64,000 nucleotides of DNA. It comes from a virus (lineage: Duplodnaviria > Heunggongvirae > Uroviricota > Caudoviricetes). Positions 29,401-36,708 of the stretch are shown one piece after another. The first letter of the stretch is position 1. Each line of letters begins with the position of its first letter. The DNA is taken from positions 32,001 through 96,000 of IMG/VR virus record IMGVR_UViG_3300020048_006428. One strand, given 5' to 3'. The translations under genes were made by a program, and so were the position numbers. Under the pieces are notes generated by a model, which saw only the letters and a list, made by a program, of their open reading frames with translations, was not told the DNA's origin and did no database searches.

Positions 29401-31110
29401 CTATACTTTATTAAGTTTATATCTATAGTAAATAAATATTGATAACATTTCTTTATTGTTTGCTAATGATGTTTCAACTATATTTAATAATTCTTCTACT
29501 GACCAAGTCATAATTCCAAACCAATCAAGTAATTCTAAATAACCTACATCTCCTATTAAACTAACAATAAAATTCTTATATGGTGTGATGTCAAATCTAT
29601 TCCTACAATTTCTTAGGTTTAAATAAACATTTACCATTGCTATATTTTTAATACCTACTGTTTTTTGAACTATGTAACCATTATAAATATTTTCAATTCT
29701 TGAAAGAACATTATTAGAAAATCTATATTTCAAAAGATATTCTGCTAATTTTTCAAGTCCATCAATATCCATAGATTGTTCAAATTGTTTTACATTTTCC
29801 TTTGTTTTCAAAATCCATTTGTCTAAATATACATTAAAAAATAATTGTGATTTATGACATAAATATTCTGTTCCATTTATATTAATATTTATTAATAATT
29901 TTATTTCATCTTTATGTGTGTAATCACTATTAAATTCATTATCAATCTTGTCATATAATTCAAATTCTATTGCTTCATCTGCTGGTAAAGAACAACTATG
30001 TATATCTGAATGAACTGATTTATTATAAAGTATATATGTATCCAAATAATCAGAATAAACTATTTGATATGATGTTGAAAGATAGTATTCACCTTCGGAT
30101 TCAACAAAAACTGCTTCACCATCAGGCACCCAAGATTGAACATCAACACAATAAACTGCATCATTTGAATCTACTTTTAGATCAAATTCATTTGAGTAAA
30201 CTTGACCTGAGCTTGATAGCCCATTTGTCTGTCTTAATCTATTTTGTCTATTTTCTTCATTTGTTATTTCATATGTTTTTGGATAATATGCTTCAAAAGT
30301 GTCCATATATGGAAACATTTTATAATCATATTTTTTTAATACAACTTTCATATATTCCCTATTATCAGAATCATAAATTTTCATATTATTTTCTTTTGCA
30401 TATTCCAAAAATAAATTTGCATCAGAATCATAATTACAATATATCCTATCCATATAATACTCACCTGTTGATAATTTCCAAATCAATGCTCTTCCAACAA
30501 TCTTATTTGGATTATCTCTTTTTAAGATTAAAAGACTACAAACTTCTGGATTTTTTGTATAAATGTCAAAAAACATTTGACATTTTTTATATCGCATACA
30601 AGAATTACTTAAATCACCTGTTTTTTCTTGGTAATTATCTACCAAATACCATTTTTTAATTTCATCACCCTTAACCAATTCAAATGATGATGAACTATAT
30701 ATTTTATTAAATGTAGATTTATATAAATTTACAAAAATAGGCAATTCCTTACTTGGAAAATCTGTTAATACTTTATTTACAAATCTACCTATTGCAATTT
30801 CAGATCTTTGTTTTTTCCATAAAGTATGATTTGAATCACTCGTAACAACTTCTAAATTCTTATCTATATCTTCTTCCCCTAATGTATTTACAATCCTATT
30901 TACTTGTATAAAAGATACTGAATTATCCTTATCTGTTATATCAATTAATGTAAAGTCTTTTTTATTATCCACATCATTTTCTATATCCAATAACTTATTA
31001 GTTATTGGATTATCAATCATTTTGAATAATTCTTTTAATTTAGTGGAATAAATTAATGGTAATGTTTTTATACTTTCTAAAAACAACTCGTAATTTTTAA
31101 TATTTTTCAT
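29401..31110 (-). CDS. Conserved phage protein, paralog of 24604
   Basis: NSCM, FDIYTKNPEVC, GRALIWKLS, MDRIY, FPYMDTF; leader MKNIKNYELFLES. Confidence 0.7.
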   Translation of the reverse strand: MKNIKNYELFLESIKTLPLIYSTKLKELFKMIDNPITNKLLDIENDVDNKKDFTLIDITDKDNSVSFIQVNRIVNTLGEEDIDKNLEVVTSDSNHTLWKKQRSEIAIGRFVNKVLTDFPSKELPIFVNLYKSTFNKIYSSSSFELVKGDEIKKWYLVDNYQEKTGDLSNSCMRYKKCQMFFDIYTKNPEVCSLLILKRDNPNKIVGRALIWKLSTGEYYMDRIYCNYDSDANLFLEYAKENNMKIYDSDNREYMKVVLKKYDYKMFPYMDTFEAYYPKTYEITNEENRQNRLRQTNGLSSSGQVYSNEFDLKVDSNDAVYCVDVQSWVPDGEAVFVESEGEYYLSTSYQIVYSDYLDTYILYNKSVHSDIHSCSLPADEAIEFELYDKIDNEFNSDYTHKDEIKLLINININGTEYLCHKSQLFFNVYLDKWILKTKENVKQFEQSMDIDGLEKLAEYLLKYRFSNNVLSRIENIYNGYIVQKTVGIKNIAMVNVYLNLRNCRNRFDITPYKNFIVSLIGDVGYLELLDWFGIMTWSVEELLNIVETSLANNKEMLSIFIYYRYKLNKV

Positions 31111-31128
31111 ATATTATATATTAATATT

Positions 31129-33342
31129 TTAATACCAATTTCGACCATTCAAATTCTTCATCTCCTTAGCATATTTCCTTTGCTTATTTATTTTTATAAT
31201 ACTTGAATAGTCAATTCCTTCAACATAATCAACCTGTTTTATATAACTATTCCACAATAATAATTTATCATTAGAAATGTTTTTATTTGCATAATCTTCA
31301 ACCATTTCCCTAAATTCATATTTAGAAAATACACTAGCCCCATTTATAAGAGTCATTACTGTATCATCATTTCCAATATCAGCAGCATATCTTATGTTTC
31401 CTGATGGGGTTATGTGTTTAACAAATGTTGTTATTTCATTTATATTTTCTTCATTTGAAATAATAAAATTCTTTTTACCCATTGCTTCTTGGTAATCCTT
31501 AACCAACATGTTTTTATTGTCACCTATCTTTATACCAATTTTTTCTTCTAAAGCATCTGCTCTATGTTTATATCTAAAAAATATATTTGAACCATAATTA
31601 TTTCTACCTTCAAATAAATGTGGTAAATGCGCCAATAATTCATTTCCATATGTGTTTATTTCTAAAACAACCTTGAAATTTTCATTATTGAAATATTCAA
31701 ATGCTAAAACATAAAATAATTCAGCTAACTGTTTAACAGAAACTAAATTGGATCTATATATACCAATCTGTTGCAAACAAAAGAAATCTGATAAATGTGT
31801 ATATGTTGATTTTTGCATTTCTATCAACTCATCTGATTTTTCTTTTATCTTAAATATATTCATAATTGAATAATCCTGTCCTAAACCTTCTGATAAGTCA
31901 ATAGATATTATACCACTAACACTATTACGCATTAATGGACTAAATACATCATCATCTTGGATCCATTTTAAATCTTTATACGAAAATTTTAATCTATTAC
32001 TAAATTCAGTCAATTCTTCATATTCATAATGCTTCTTATTGTTTATCAAATTATCTATTATAGCTTCACTTAATAACGATCTTGTTGCATTAACAAATCT
32101 TAATCCATATTCTTGATTAAAAGCATCTTCCCCACCAATATCCTTAATAGCTTCTTCTTTCCAAGTTGTTACTTCTGCAACCGCTCTAATTGGAATTAAC
32201 ATACCATCTTCCCTTGTAATTTGGAATTGTTTAGCTAATTCATCAGTACAAAATTCATTGTTATATATGTATATAACATCTTTCATTAAATCCGGTATAT
32301 ATTTAACTTCAACCTTAGTTAACTCACCAAACGCTTCTTTTACCTGTTCAAATATCGTATCTTTATCTAAATTATTTTCATACATTAAATGTGGATTTAA
32401 TCTGAAATATGTAACAAATCTACCCTTAACCTGATACCAATAAACACGCATTGCTTTATAGTTATTCTTTGATGGATCACCATATGGTCTTTCAGCATCA
32501 CTTAATAATTTATGAAATAAATTCATACCATTTGGGGTGGATGTAATTACAATCTTTGAATTGTTAATAGCAGATACAGTTGGGAATGCTGCTGTATAAT
32601 AAGGTTCTATAATATTACTTGGAATATGCGCAAATTCATCCAGATACAAAAAGTCAATAGTAAAACCAATTGCTGGTGTCTTACTTCTTGCTGATGATTT
32701 TATTCTGCACCCATTCTCAAAAATCATTGTTCTTTGATTCCAGTTCTTTATACCAGATTTTAAGAAAAAAGGTAATAATGAATAGATAGACTTAATCTTA
32801 TCAATAATTTCAATAGTAGTACCCGCTACATTCGCTACAATCATTATATTCTTATCATTGTTGAATATAACGAAATGTAACATTGTTATGGCAGCATTTA
32901 CTGTATTATGGCTTAATATACCATTTGTGTAAAATCTATGATCTTTGTGGTCTATACTTAAATCAAACATAGAAACACTATTACTCTTCTTTATTATATT
33001 TTTAATTGATATTAAACCATCATCAGTTTGTATAACATCACCAATCTTTAAATCTTTACAAAATACTTGATTATAATCTTTATCAAATAATATATGATTA
33101 TCTGCACATTCAATATTATATCCATTTTCTAACTCTATTAAATAAATCTTATAAGGTTGTGTTATATGAATATCTGTTGCTTTAACATAGCCATCATCAG
33201 ATTTTACTAATAAGGTTAAATTAGATATAGTATTTAATATTTTTTTTGAAATATCATCTTCATCCAACTTTAAGTTTCTATATTCATATCTTTCAATTAA
33301 TTGAATTATATAATATATTATTTTAATAATAATTTTAAACAT
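31129..33342 (-). CDS. terL: Terminase large subunit, C-terminal precursor (IntC 146 aa plus C-extein)
   Basis: Intein motifs ECADNH, FDLSI, SHN|T; then LYLDEFAHI (Walker B), ITSTPNG, FNQEY, IDLSEGLGQDYS, NDDTVM. Confidence 0.92.
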   Translation of the reverse strand: MFKIIIKIIYYIIQLIERYEYRNLKLDEDDISKKILNTISNLTLLVKSDDGYVKATDIHITQPYKIYLIELENGYNIECADNHILFDKDYNQVFCKDLKIGDVIQTDDGLISIKNIIKKSNSVSMFDLSIDHKDHRFYTNGILSHNTVNAAITMLHFVIFNNDKNIMIVANVAGTTIEIIDKIKSIYSLLPFFLKSGIKNWNQRTMIFENGCRIKSSARSKTPAIGFTIDFLYLDEFAHIPSNIIEPYYTAAFPTVSAINNSKIVITSTPNGMNLFHKLLSDAERPYGDPSKNNYKAMRVYWYQVKGRFVTYFRLNPHLMYENNLDKDTIFEQVKEAFGELTKVEVKYIPDLMKDVIYIYNNEFCTDELAKQFQITREDGMLIPIRAVAEVTTWKEEAIKDIGGEDAFNQEYGLRFVNATRSLLSEAIIDNLINNKKHYEYEELTEFSNRLKFSYKDLKWIQDDDVFSPLMRNSVSGIISIDLSEGLGQDYSIMNIFKIKEKSDELIEMQKSTYTHLSDFFCLQQIGIYRSNLVSVKQLAELFYVLAFEYFNNENFKVVLEINTYGNELLAHLPHLFEGRNNYGSNIFFRYKHRADALEEKIGIKIGDNKNMLVKDYQEAMGKKNFIISNEENINEITTFVKHITPSGNIRYAADIGNDDTVMTLINGASVFSKYEFREMVEDYANKNISNDKLLLWNSYIKQVDYVEGIDYSSIIKINKQRKYAKEMKNLNGRNWY
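32905..33342 (-). mobile_element. Split intein C-fragment
   Basis: Blocks B, F and G ending His-Asn; +1 residue Thr. Confidence 0.88.
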
Positions 33343-33367
33343 TATTTATTCTTTTTTTTAATAAAAA

Positions 33368-34366
33368 TTATGATAGAAATTCTATGCATTTTTTTATTGT
33401 TTCTTTTTTGTTCTTCCTATATTCACTATCCCAAATAACCAAAACATCAAACCCTTTATTTTTGGCTACACTTAATTTATCAGAATCCTTATCCCATGTT
33501 TCTTTTGCACTTGGACCATTTTCTTTATAAAAAGGGTGTGGATAATCATTTTCGTTGTATATATTTGGATTTGCGTGATATACATCACCATTGTATTCAA
33601 TTATTCTTTTAGAATTTAAATCAACATAATCATAAATATAAAATGAACCTTTAACTGATATGTAATATTCTTTGTTTTTTGTTGCAAAATATATATTTTC
33701 TAATTTACTTGATTTTAATCTTGTGTTAAACAATATTTCTGAAAATAGTTCTTGACTTATAGCAGAATATCCACATTTTATATTACCATTTTCCAATAAA
33801 CTCTTTTGCCATTTTCGTTGTCTTTCCTTCCATTTATCTAAACCTTTTTCTTCACCATATTTTTCTATACATTTATCTAATGAAAAAGTCTTTTGTCTTT
33901 CAGATACCATTTTAATAGATTCTTCTTCTGAATATCCTTTTACCATATAATATTCCTTTTGATTTGGTGATATTCTATCTTTAATAGCTTCTTTTGCAAA
34001 ATTACTTATGTGTTCTTCTTTGTTTTCAATTTCTTCATATTTACTGAAATTTTTAGAAAATGGACTCCTTGATTTTCTTTCTTCTTCTGTTGTCTTATTT
34101 TTATGATTAGGATTGTTTTCACCTTTAAATTTTTCACTAAACATAGTCTTATACTTTTCTTCCTTCATATGCTTACCACTATTGATAGTGGTGTTTTTTA
34201 AGTCACTTGTAGCCATTAGTGGCGCACCCGGAAACATAGATTTATATTCATCAGATGTAATCTTATGTTCGTTTTTTAAATGGGCACCATATATTCTTTT
34301 TTTGTTAATTCCACAAATTCTACACGTTACCATTTCTTCATTGTCCGTAATTATAATATTTTCCAT
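33368..34366 (-). CDS. Free-standing homing endonuclease (C2H2 finger, NUMOD-like, Vsr/DUF559-like nuclease)
   Basis: CRICG...HLKNEH, GENNP, YDY...IIEYNGDVYHANP...VLVIWDSE; lies between the terL halves. Confidence 0.8.
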   Translation of the reverse strand: MENIIITDNEEMVTCRICGINKKRIYGAHLKNEHKITSDEYKSMFPGAPLMATSDLKNTTINSGKHMKEEKYKTMFSEKFKGENNPNHKNKTTEEERKSRSPFSKNFSKYEEIENKEEHISNFAKEAIKDRISPNQKEYYMVKGYSEEESIKMVSERQKTFSLDKCIEKYGEEKGLDKWKERQRKWQKSLLENGNIKCGYSAISQELFSEILFNTRLKSSKLENIYFATKNKEYYISVKGSFYIYDYVDLNSKRIIEYNGDVYHANPNIYNENDYPHPFYKENGPSAKETWDKDSDKLSVAKNKGFDVLVIWDSEYRKNKKETIKKCIEFLS

Positions 34367-34417
34367 AATGTTTAATATTTTTTAATTATATTAAATTTAT
34401 TGTATATTGTTTATGTA

Positions 34418-34933
34418 TTAAGATAAATAGTATATTATGTCATATAGAAACATTTTAAACCTTTCAACAAATTTTAATTTTCTTTCCTTAGATAATAGCA
34501 AATAATATATTTTTCCTACCCTATACTCAAATTCTAAATCTTCTAAAACTATTGATATTTCTGTGTTGTATGAAAAGCACTTACCAATTTGCCTACTCGC
34601 CATTAATATACTAAATCTATTTTTTGTATATAGGTCAAGGATATCTTTTTGATAATCTCTGAGTGTCATATTAGTTACTGTACCATCTTCTGTTTTAACT
34701 TTACAGTATTTTTCTGCAAAGTAGTGTATATCAAGTTTACATTTTATATATTCTTGAATTTCATCTTCTGTCATCATGAATGTTATACCAGCTCTTCTAA
34801 CACCTATTTCATTTTTAAACCATGGATTTTGGTATCTTTTAACAACAACACCATCATTTATTTTTTCTGTAATTTCATCTATATTTTTGCTGGTAAATAT
34901 GAATTTCTTTTCTGCTTCTACCTTTTTGGCCAT
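34418..34933 (-). CDS. terL: Terminase large subunit, N-terminal precursor (N-extein plus IntN 53 aa)
   Basis: EYIKCKLDIHYFAEKY, LRDYQ, Walker A SRQIGK directly followed by intein block A CFSYNTEI. Confidence 0.92.
   Translation of the reverse strand: MAKKVEAEKKFIFTSKNIDEITEKINDGVVVKRYQNPWFKNEIGVRRAGITFMMTEDEIQEYIKCKLDIHYFAEKYCKVKTEDGTVTNMTLRDYQKDILDLYTKNRFSILMASRQIGKCFSYNTEISIVLEDLEFEYRVGKIYYLLLSKERKLKFVERFKMFLYDIIYYLS
34421..34579 (-). mobile_element. Split intein N-fragment
   Basis: Cys1 codon at 34579-34577 immediately after Walker A GK. Confidence 0.85.
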
Positions 34934-34986: not shown

Positions 34987-35613
34987 ATGAGTAAAAAGGA
35001 AGAAAAGATGAATAGCTTACAGAATGAGTTTAACCGAATTCAAGAAGAAAATAAAGATTTGGATGTAAGCAAGTATTTAGCAAAAAGAGAAGATTTACCA
35101 GATTTGGGTGAAATACAGATATATGATTATGATGCAGACACAGTAGAATCACAAGAACAAGCAATAGATATATTAGAATCATTGGTTGATATGTATTTAG
35201 GTGATAATCCATCAATTTTAAAACATAAGTATATACAGAAAAAAATGATGGAAGATGCCCAAGTGTATGCTGATACTATTTTCTTACAGAAGATGACTAA
35301 GAAGAACTTTCTTACACAATTAAGACAGGTTGATAATGGTGATAGTTCTGCAAGGATGCACGAAGTAATAAATCAATCTATATCACAAATAAGGGATAAT
35401 ATAAAATTTTCTCAAAATCAAAGAACTGATTTAGAGAAATTTTATAGAGATATGAGAAAGGATTTGGGTTTGAACGAAATATCAGAATCTATGGAACAAA
35501 AAAACATGCAAGATCATGATATAAATAATAATACTAATAAGGAAGAAGGTAAAATTATGGATACTAGAAATTTAAACAATATGATTGATAATTATTTGAA
35601 GAATAAAGAATAA
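34987..35613 (+). CDS. Helical hypothetical protein, possible terminase small subunit
   Basis: Divergent from terL with a shared TATATATA; SARMHEV resembles the gp16 PRxxEV motif only weakly. Confidence 0.4.
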   Translation: MSKKEEKMNSLQNEFNRIQEENKDLDVSKYLAKREDLPDLGEIQIYDYDADTVESQEQAIDILESLVDMYLGDNPSILKHKYIQKKMMEDAQVYADTIFLQKMTKKNFLTQLRQVDNGDSSARMHEVINQSISQIRDNIKFSQNQRTDLEKFYRDMRKDLGLNEISESMEQKNMQDHDINNNTNKEEGKIMDTRNLNNMIDNYLKNKE

Positions 35614-35874
35614 TTAATATTCATCATATTCATCATATTCATCATCTGGAAATTTATCTTTAATAAATTGTGGGGTGTTTTCAACAAATTCTACATTTAC
35701 ACCAAAATGGTTTAATATTATATTAAAATATTCTTCTCTATAATCACCATCATTTTCGTGTATAGATGTAATTATGTTATTATCTTGATCATAAAAAACT
35801 TGACCGTTATTCCAATAGGTATAGAATAATGTTTTACCTATTGACATTTCATTTATTGACATTAAGTGTTTCAT
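35614..35874 (-). CDS. Small acidic protein with MKHLMSINEM leader
   Basis: Leader variant; palindromic promoter upstream. Confidence 0.6.
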   Translation of the reverse strand: MKHLMSINEMSIGKTLFYTYWNNGQVFYDQDNNIITSIHENDGDYREEYFNIILNHFGVNVEFVENTPQFIKDKFPDDEYDEYDEY

Positions 35875-35922: not shown

Positions 35923-36708
35923 ATGAAACACTTAAAAACATTTGAATCTTTTAACTATTCACCTTATAGGTTGATTAATGAAAATGGTGAATATATTAAG
36001 CAGATTAAGGAATTGATTCTAAGTTTTGATGAAGATAATATTAAATTAGCATTTCAGATTGCGAAAGGATTAAAGATTAAACAAATAGATATTTTGGAAG
36101 AATACAGAGATTTGTTTACTGCTTTTGGATATAAACCATCAGTAACCAGTTTATTAAAAATAATTGGAACATATAATTTGGATTGTAAATCAGCTACTGT
36201 TCCTGATATTTTATTTAAGTTACCAAATTTAGAAAAAATAACATTTTATAAAATTGTTAATTTGGATAATTTAGTTGAGTTTGATGGTGATATCAATATT
36301 TGGACAACTTATGGTGGTGGTGGACAGGGAACTATAACAAGTTTACCATCATTGAAAAAAATAGGGGGTTCATTAGATATATTATTTAGTTTAATTAATT
36401 CAATACCACAATTAGAATATGTTGGTGGTAGTTTGAACTTAATGGGGAAAACAATTAAATCATTTAGTAAACTAACAGCAGTTGGTGGAAATTTGTATAT
36501 GAGTAATGCTAAAATTGAGTCATTGGGTAGTTTAACTACTGTTGGTGGAAATTTGAGTTTAAGTCACGCTAAAATTGATTCATTGGGTAGTTTAACTACT
36601 GTTGGTGGAGATTTGAGTTTAAGAAATACACCATTATCAGAAACAGCAGAAGAGGAAATAAGAAATAAAGTTGATGTAAAAGGTAAGATTTTCCTATATG
36701 GATACTAG
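35923..36708 (+). CDS. LRR-type protein (LxxVGGxLxL repeats) with MKHLKTFESF leader
   Basis: About five 22-aa repeats such as SLGSLTTVGGNLSLSHAKI. Confidence 0.8.
   Translation: MKHLKTFESFNYSPYRLINENGEYIKQIKELILSFDEDNIKLAFQIAKGLKIKQIDILEEYRDLFTAFGYKPSVTSLLKIIGTYNLDCKSATVPDILFKLPNLEKITFYKIVNLDNLVEFDGDINIWTTYGGGGQGTITSLPSLKKIGGSLDILFSLINSIPQLEYVGGSLNLMGKTIKSFSKLTAVGGNLYMSNAKIESLGSLTTVGGNLSLSHAKIDSLGSLTTVGGDLSLRNTPLSETAEEEIRNKVDVKGKIFLYGY

Follow-up and report, generated by a model that had tools for sequence, protein, structure and literature searches.

Organization of the fractured terL locus

The window analysed here is a stretch of 64,000 nucleotides comprising bases 32001-96000 of a 276,400-bp IMG/VR virus record (IMGVR_UViG_3300020048_006428), and the element under study is its gene for the large terminase subunit (terL), which is divided over two open reading frames (ORFs) with parts of an intein at the fracture. 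On the minus strand, read 5' to 3', the ORF for the N-terminal terminase part (TerL-N) and the N-terminal intein part (IntN), an endonuclease ORF, and the ORF for the C-terminal intein part (IntC) and the C-terminal terminase part (TerL-C) follow each other head to tail. The features are listed below with their lengths in amino acids (aa); a slash marks a splice junction.

34933..34418, minus strand: TerL-N+IntN ORF, 171 aa
34580..34933, minus strand: TerL N-extein, 118 aa, ending in ...SRQIGK, the first half of Walker A
34418..34579, minus strand: IntN, 53 aa and stop, with Cys1, block A CFSYNTEI, a GKIYY helix, and a basic amphipathic tail helix up to the break
34367..34417, minus strand: spacer of 51 nt, holding a sigma-70-like TAAACA-17-TATAAT (34413..34385)
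33368..34366, minus strand: predicted free-standing homing-endonuclease gene, 332 aa, PHROG 22677 (4e-25)
34178..34366, minus strand: endonuclease residues 1-63, Ros/MucR-type C2H2 zinc finger, likely the DNA-binding part
33371..33781, minus strand: endonuclease residues 196-332, Vsr-like nuclease domain with the motif IIEYNGDVYHAN
33343..33367, minus strand: spacer of 25 nt from the endonuclease stop to the IntC start
33342..31129, minus strand: IntC+TerL-C ORF, 737 aa
32905..33342, minus strand: IntC, 146 aa, with a hydrophobic head helix (residues 1 to about 22) and blocks B, F, and G
IntC motifs: block B CADNH (His83); block F SMFD...HKDHRFYTNG; block G SHN, in ...GILSHN/TVNAAI
31129..32904, minus strand: TerL C-extein, 591 aa and stop; Thr+1 completes Walker A GK/T, followed by the remaining ATPase domain and the nuclease domain

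The outer limits of the locus, the lengths of IntN and IntC, and both spacers had been given correctly to the base in the original prediction for this DNA.

The two halves meet within the Walker A motif

When the two halves were compared with T4 gp17 (PDB 2o0h, 3cpe), the N half was matched up to ...SRQLGK (E 2e-12), the N-extein aligning with gp17 residues 117-191 of 2o0h, and the match to the C half started with the residue that follows, Thr of Walker A (E 1e-24). Since the gp17 matches to the two halves meet at GK/T, joining them restores the Walker A motif exactly. The N-extein was assigned to PHROG 5989, terminase large subunit (8e-21), and the C-extein to Pfam Terminase_6N (3e-13). In 43 related viral contigs, the same N-extein runs in frame straight into the same C-extein; these intein-free alleles read N-extein and then T(V/I)(N/S)AAI..., and the C-extein of the window is 61-72% identical to most of them and 43-72% identical over all. 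Because the intein-free alleles run in frame across the same junction, the predicted ligation product, with its restored RQIGKT, is confirmed. As the uninterrupted terL of all 43 contigs crosses this junction, the arrangement is not due to chance.

An intein in the Walker A loop

Cys119 of the N ORF, corresponding to intein Cys1, directly follows ...SRQIGK, and none of the 17 distinct IntN sequences lacks Cys1. IntC matched three inteins of known structure, CatC (6dsl_B, 2e-6), VidaL (6vgv, 4e-6), and gp41-1 (6qaz, 2e-5), with blocks B, F, and G aligned, as well as Pfam Intein_splicing (6e-4); the suggested alignment to known split TerL inteins thus gave homology to CatC. His83 of IntC, within CADNH, aligns with block B of all three and is kept in 118 of 125 alignment rows, and position B7 is occupied by Ala in place of Thr, as in VidaL. 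ADNH had been put forward as a non-canonical block B, but it is the family norm, with CSDNH in CatC, CAFNH in VidaL, and VADEH in Klebsiella phage May. Nor is Thr+1 a novelty as had been supposed, since it follows from insertion at the K/T site of the P-loop, a position that Kelley et al. (2016, PMC5050341) describe as 'classic' for P-loop inteins and that mycobacteriophage TerL1-a occupies as well. Hardly any variation was seen at the catalytic positions of 88 IntC-bearing proteins: the block F Asp, the terminal His-Asn, and Thr+1 are retained in all 88, and the block B His is likewise essentially invariant.

A database search with IntC and the start of TerL-C retrieved 1,121 proteins. Since most of them are about 740 aa long and begin at the IntC head, most of these matches are split forms; among the best 120 of the 1,121, nearly all begin at the IntC head. 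An unbroken TerL is seen in three homologues, P0029 (919 aa) and P0051 and P0052 (both 909 aa); each contains a contiguous intein of about 200 residues that corresponds, in order and without omission, to IntN followed by IntC. When the split allele L001 was compared with P0029, residues 1-173 were covered at 90% identity and residues 173-919 at 88%, with no gap. Because L001 tiles P0029 completely at 88-90%, the endonuclease gene must have been gained or lost recently in this lineage.

The AlphaFold2 (AF2) model of P0029, with a mean predicted local distance difference test (pLDDT) score of 75, contains a beta-rich HINT core at residues 208-304 with pLDDT values of 78-91. Foldseek searches with the intein region of this model returned VidaL as the best match (E 6.5e-5, root-mean-square deviation (rmsd) 3.7, 94 columns), together with gp41-1, Cat, and the RadA intein. 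The sequence matches and the model support the assignment of a class 1 intein (HINT domain), predicted to lie at the Walker A loop between Lys and Thr.

Allele series in related viral contigs

We surveyed 69 viral contigs encoding a relative of TerL-N. The 43 mentioned above carry an intein-free terL, and in the other 26 the gene is fractured, without any variation in the site of the break. Four kinds of content, on either strand, occupy the gap between the halves. Most fractured alleles carry the same Vsr-like gene, and an endonuclease gene between the intein halves with all genes on one strand is common to L001-3, L010-12, L027, L028, L031-33, L044, L057, L061, L062, and L068; its 3' end overlaps the IntC start in L001 (by 28 nt) and in L027. 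The gap of L054 (6628-9021) contains a decayed Vsr-like gene, left as fragments of 52 and 140 aa, plus about 1.4 kb of further ORFs, and we regard this allele as a snapshot of endonuclease loss after fixation. A DUF7487/Mom-like ORF with an FEFNG.YWH motif fills the gap on the same strand in L041 and on the opposite strand in L049, a GIY-YIG gene lies on the opposite strand in L051 (Pfam 2e-6), and 2.1 kb of unrelated ORFs separate the halves in L043 and L069.

The halves are unlinked in the 735-kb genome LR756501. There, TerL-N with IntN (181 aa; LR756501.1 623877-624422, L074) lies, on the same strand, 12.4 kb upstream of IntC-TerL-C (609226-611493, L072), and the interval holds radical-SAM genes and others. 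The 642-kb genome LR756502 is intein-free. For the window itself, contigs of three other studies, about 98-99% identical to it, span both the TerL-N/endonuclease and the endonuclease/IntC junctions. A read joint from 32859 to 34599 (23-nt side), which may come from an intein-free relative, was too imprecise and was not used.

In many of the relatives, the TerL nuclease domain harbours a further, contiguous intein (about 350 aa, near C-extein residues 514-528), which is absent from the terL of the window. It is found in L010/L011 (10055-11118), L030 (5751-6841), and L048 (7935-8983), and in the proteins P0020, P0028, P0048, and P0065 (about 1100 aa), and Pfam LAGLIDADG_3 and Hint_2 are among its matches.

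A helix-loop-helix insert at the break

As had been predicted, the intein is split before block B. The N ORF contains block A and stops after 53 intein residues, and block B lies in the downstream ORF. The position of the break is identical in 26 of 26 fractured alleles; for 24 of these, IntN is 52-56 aa long, and the two others have an IntN of 70-73 aa. In the natural inteins with an atypical split reported in the literature (PMC13014065), beta2 or alpha1 precedes the split and IntN has 15-37 aa; IntN is longer than this both here (53 aa) and in the relatives (52-73 aa).

In the P0029 model, the break maps to a low-confidence loop (166-173) between a helix formed by the IntN tail (152-166) and a helix formed by the IntC head (173-193). 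Both flanking helices are kept in every allele, and one Ile and two Glu residues of the IntC head helix are invariant in 88 sequences. Neither helix is found in the 159-aa contiguous intein of Klebsiella phage May, in Cat, or in gp41-1. Judging from the model, the break would occupy the alpha1 (S2) position but inside an added helix-loop-helix, and it is because of this location that IntN would reach 53 aa.

We tentatively propose, while considering it somewhat less than an even chance, that the helix pair serves as a built-in heterodimerisation zipper for a low-affinity split intein whose halves are encoded by separate, even distant genes, and that the loop is a landing pad for endonuclease genes. 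Under this proposal, unrelated endonuclease genes would come and go in a tolerated landing pad with splicing unharmed, and the helix-loop-helix insert would be an add-on not described for any split intein. Two other ideas on these helices were dropped. The resemblance of the IntN tail (MFLYDIIYY) to the IntC head (MFKIIIKIIYY) is not a target-site duplication, as the two are distinct helices, each conserved in the contiguous forms as well as in all alleles. Charge complementarity was likewise rejected, because a basic IntN tail (charge +2 to +9 in 15 of the 16 alleles) is not matched by an acidic IntC head, so that no clear electrostatic pairing results.

The predicted endonuclease gene between the halves

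The endonuclease has 912 homologues, and its direct sequence matches to known domains all fell below the cut-off: DUF559 (6e-3), REase_MTES_1575 (3e-3), and ROS_MUCR (Pfam PF05443, 1e-3). Searches of PDB sequences with the single sequence and with an 11-sequence profile reached neither I-Bth0305I nor Vsr, and its identity was settled by fold comparison. The AF2 model, built from a 99-sequence alignment, has a pLDDT of 88. When residues 196-332 of the model were compared with known structures (VIA-align), they matched Vsr (1cw0, Z 11.1, 117 aligned, rmsd 3.1), a DUF559-like protein (3hrl, Z 10.0), and the catalytic domain of I-Bth0305I (3r3p, Z 9.9, 93 of 97 residues). The N-terminal part comprises a Ros/MucR-type zinc finger followed by helical repeats, and residues 1-63 matched the Ros structure 2jsp (Z 5.3, 62 aligned). 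C15, C18, H29, and H34 are at least 90% conserved; in the nuclease domain, D246, E257, H264, and N266 are invariant and D261 and D294 at least 90% conserved among 99 homologues.

The modelled fold places the enzyme in the Vsr-like family as Dassa et al. defined it from fractured genes, and the prediction of a Vsr/DUF559-like endonuclease between the halves is borne out by the match to the Vsr and I-Bth0305I fold. The gene is most likely a selfish passenger whose product would cut endonuclease-free alleles, either an intein-less terL or one with a contiguous intein, and which would spread by repair.

Transcription signals and neighbouring genes

The endonuclease had been credited with a promoter-like element of its own. 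The motif TAAACA-17-TATAAT is indeed present in the 51-nt spacer, but it is not above chance in DNA of 75% A+T, and the region holds 31 promoter-like sites versus 38.1 (sd 4.6) in shuffled sequences. A T4 late-promoter word, TATAAATA, 22 nt upstream of terL-N was discarded as meaningless, with 39 copies found and 34 expected.

A divergent gene on the plus strand begins at 34987, and a minus-strand ORF of 569 aa lies 18 nt downstream of terL-C. The four minus-strand genes, terL-N, the endonuclease gene, terL-C, and the 569-aa ORF, may form one transcription unit. An MK(H/N)(L/I)K..(F/Y)E-type leader opens the terL-flanking ORFs at 29401-31110 (minus strand), 35614-35874 (minus strand), and 35923-36708 (plus strand), and the 569-aa ORF just 3' of terL-C is among the ORFs with this leader.

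Host genome and other terminase copies

The 276,400-bp record is rated about 47% complete and has a G+C content of about 25%. Its nearest phage records are the uncultured genomes LR745206, LR756502, LR756504, and LR756501, of 635-735 kb, which we take to be the largest 'huge phages' of Al-Shayeb et al. 2020. The window belongs to a huge aquatic phage, and only its TerL is of the T4 type. A T4-like phage setting had been assumed for this locus; the T4 type of its TerL stands, whereas the host is no ordinary T4-like phage but a huge phage related to these 635-735 kb genomes.

Only one copy of a full terL was found in the record. The sole other TerL match is a 245-aa ATPase-like paralogue with a degenerate Walker A and no nuclease domain, which lies outside the window.

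Record 182994-183386 (locus L071 1363..2100), minus strand: 245-aa TerL ATPase paralogue, 35% identical to C-extein residues 6-137

This paralogue reads HSLESGVNT at the position where SRQIGKT is expected. In the full 735-kb LR756501, the only other TerL-like gene found using the N-half query encodes a 390-aa paralogue (L075) that reads SRQMGIT and has neither the Walker Lys nor a nuclease domain.

Proposed mechanism and alternative explanations

Based on these observations, we consider it highly probable that the window encodes a fractured terL of a huge phage, in which a class 1 intein in the Walker A loop was broken by an endonuclease gene and TerL is formed by protein trans-splicing of two precursors. 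The intein coding sequence would have been broken by the free-standing endonuclease gene in the loop of the helix-loop-helix, after the first intein helix and before block B. The genes, lying on one strand behind the divergent intergenic region, would probably be co-transcribed, and TerL precursors of 171 aa and 737 aa would be translated separately. IntN, with Cys1, block A, and the basic tail helix, would then dock on the larger, partly folded IntC, with the hydrophobic head helix and blocks B, F, and G. The reassembled HINT domain would carry out trans-splicing by formation of the Cys1 thioester, attack of Thr+1, and cyclisation of Asn146, and the product would be a TerL of 709 aa with an intact SRQIGKT P-loop. 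If splicing failed, there would be neither ATPase nor packaging. The original prediction that packaging depends on protein trans-splicing is backed by sequence, fold, and population evidence, from which we infer the splicing itself.

Some observations weigh against trans-splicing as a general reading of these alleles. The P0029 model has pLDDT values of 41-69 over the N-terminal third of the intein and both splice junctions, which is partly due to the alignment, in which MAFFT put TerL-N rows into intein columns. IntC of LR756501 ends in NLN/T, with Leu for the penultimate His, so that not every allele need splice efficiently. In addition, the incompleteness of the record leaves room for a second terL in the remaining half.

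It is possible to think of the halves as being joined at the RNA level, the 1.7-kb insert being a self-splicing intron with an endonuclease ORF, as in the terL genes of Jug gut phages. Group I introns with endonuclease ORFs do split the terL of other huge phages, with support from RNA reads (PMC12880540). At the present locus, however, the limits of the insert are those of an intein, block A after Lys and ...SHN before Thr, with flanks homologous to solved and contiguous inteins, and excision of an intron with the ORF ends as its borders would still leave the P-loop interrupted by 199 foreign residues. No Rfam intron family was found in the window between 30500 and 35500 at E values up to 10, and in the relatives the gap contains opposite-strand genes or 2.1-2.5 kb of other ORFs, or the halves lie 12.4 kb apart as in LR756501. 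We regard an intron as very improbable. A chimaeric contig assembled from two strains is a practically negligible explanation: the source is a metagenome-assembled viral record, but both junctions are bridged by the nearly identical contigs of three other studies, and 26 independent viral contigs show the same architecture.

The intein halves might also no longer splice, terL either decaying with another terminase as a backup or working through non-covalent association of its parts, as in NrdA of phage Aeh1. The low completeness of the record fits the former, and non-covalent rescue of a fractured phage gene is known (PMC3045599). The synonymous to non-synonymous ratios among strain variants, which cover 40 of 164 variants and are indicative only, were 12:2 for the C-extein, 4:4 for IntC, and 10:7 for the endonuclease; the IntC ratio is relaxed compared with the exteins and would suit a loss of splicing, while that of the C-extein speaks against a decaying gene. 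Non-covalent association cannot restore GKT, as the P-loop itself is broken, and no ATPase would result unless the parts were ligated. Furthermore, a non-splicing remnant is unlikely because every catalytic residue is conserved in the 88 alleles examined of more than 1,100 IntC-TerL-C homologues, and the 390-aa paralogue of LR756501 could hardly take over, as it has no Walker Lys and no nuclease domain.

Comparison with known fractured genes and split inteins

Fractured genes, including a gp17-like terminase 'fractured at an unusual point', were described together with Vsr-like endonucleases by Dassa et al. (2009; PMC2677866), and the Vsr-like (EDxHD) family was first seen in such genes. The gp17-like locus of that study, from GOS Lake Gatun, likewise has the host gene in two ORFs with split-intein halves at the fracture. 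In those fractured genes, too, the halves are separated by a free-standing gene on the same strand for a GIY-YIG or Vsr-like endonuclease, and the C part of that terminase intein also holds all motifs but N1. The differences are that its IntC has 122 aa compared with 146 aa here, and that it was known from one incomplete read assembly without an allele series. An overlap of the endonuclease 3' end with the IntC start was present at 15 of the loci of Dassa et al., being frequent but not defining, whereas a 25-nt spacer separates the two in the window. The fractured gene, the atypically split intein, and the Vsr-like endonuclease of the original prediction therefore stand, while its claims of novelty do not, as such an arrangement was already described in 2009; the present survey shows that it is common among these phages. 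The new elements are an allele series of this scale and completeness, a host group of huge phages, and the helix-loop-helix insert at the break site, as well as the contiguous alleles of 909-919 aa and the halves 12.4 kb apart in a 735-kb phage.

The naturally split TerL inteins AceL-TerL, GOS-TerL, and Cat (6dsl) share with the present intein a break after the first helix (S2) and before block B, a small IntN with a large IntC, and a similar block B, C[SA]DNH. They have an IntN of 25-37 aa, an IntC of 104-115 aa, and Cys+1 (PMC11766414), as opposed to 53 aa, 146 aa, and Thr+1 in Walker A here, where about 50-60 extra residues form a helix on each side of the break. Since Thr+1 lies in Walker A here and the others have Cys+1, the insertion site presumably differs. 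VidaL (6vgv), the best structural match of the modelled intein, also has Ala at B7 (CAFNH), but it is split after strand beta2 (S1) and has an IntN of 16 aa (PMC13014065).

The cultured Klebsiella phage May (NC_047900, Ackermannviridae) carries at the same Walker Lys/Thr site a 159-aa mini-intein that is homologous to IntC, with VADEH and ...FLSHN/T. Both this mini-intein and the mycobacteriophage intein TerL1-a differ from the intein of the window in being contiguous: they enclose no endonuclease gene and lack the helix-loop-helix insert. The phage May mini-intein is unannotated within an annotated 'terminase large subunit' (NC_047900.1 48657-50867; L076 2503-4713). The same match to IntC was obtained for about a dozen phages of Klebsiella and Escherichia, which could be used to study this intein family in the laboratory.

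As for the endonuclease, I-Bth0305I (3r3p; PMC3239194) shares the fold of its C-terminal domain and possibly the conserved E...D..H...D pattern, but there is no sequence-level match to 3r3p, and a Ros/MucR-type zinc finger and helical repeats form the N-terminal part here.

The cyanobacterial DnaE intein is split at the canonical endonuclease-insertion site into an IntN of about 100 aa and an IntC of about 35 aa. Its halves are unlinked genes, as are those of LR756501, 12.4 kb apart, while the halves in the window are still adjacent. Because the halves are unlinked in LR756501, trans-splicing would be a fixed part of gene expression there.

Significance

The general phenomenon is textbook knowledge for intein specialists. 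The set of intein-free, contiguous mini-intein, and fractured alleles with four gap contents, together with unlinked halves, is possibly the largest natural allele series of one fractured gene. It sets out the gene-breaking model of Dassa et al. within one phage clade and makes this model testable. The locus had also been put forward as a candidate new ligation tool; here the 53-aa IntN is a drawback, since natural inteins with an atypical split are known to have an IntN of 15-37 aa, and the longer one is less attractive. If the helix pair at the break site increases the affinity of the fragments, it could be grafted onto weak split inteins. The annotation of terL in huge phages, a marker gene of their phylogeny, is affected by its fracture. 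We suggest that huge phages of the 635-735 kb group would routinely depend on protein trans-splicing to package their DNA.

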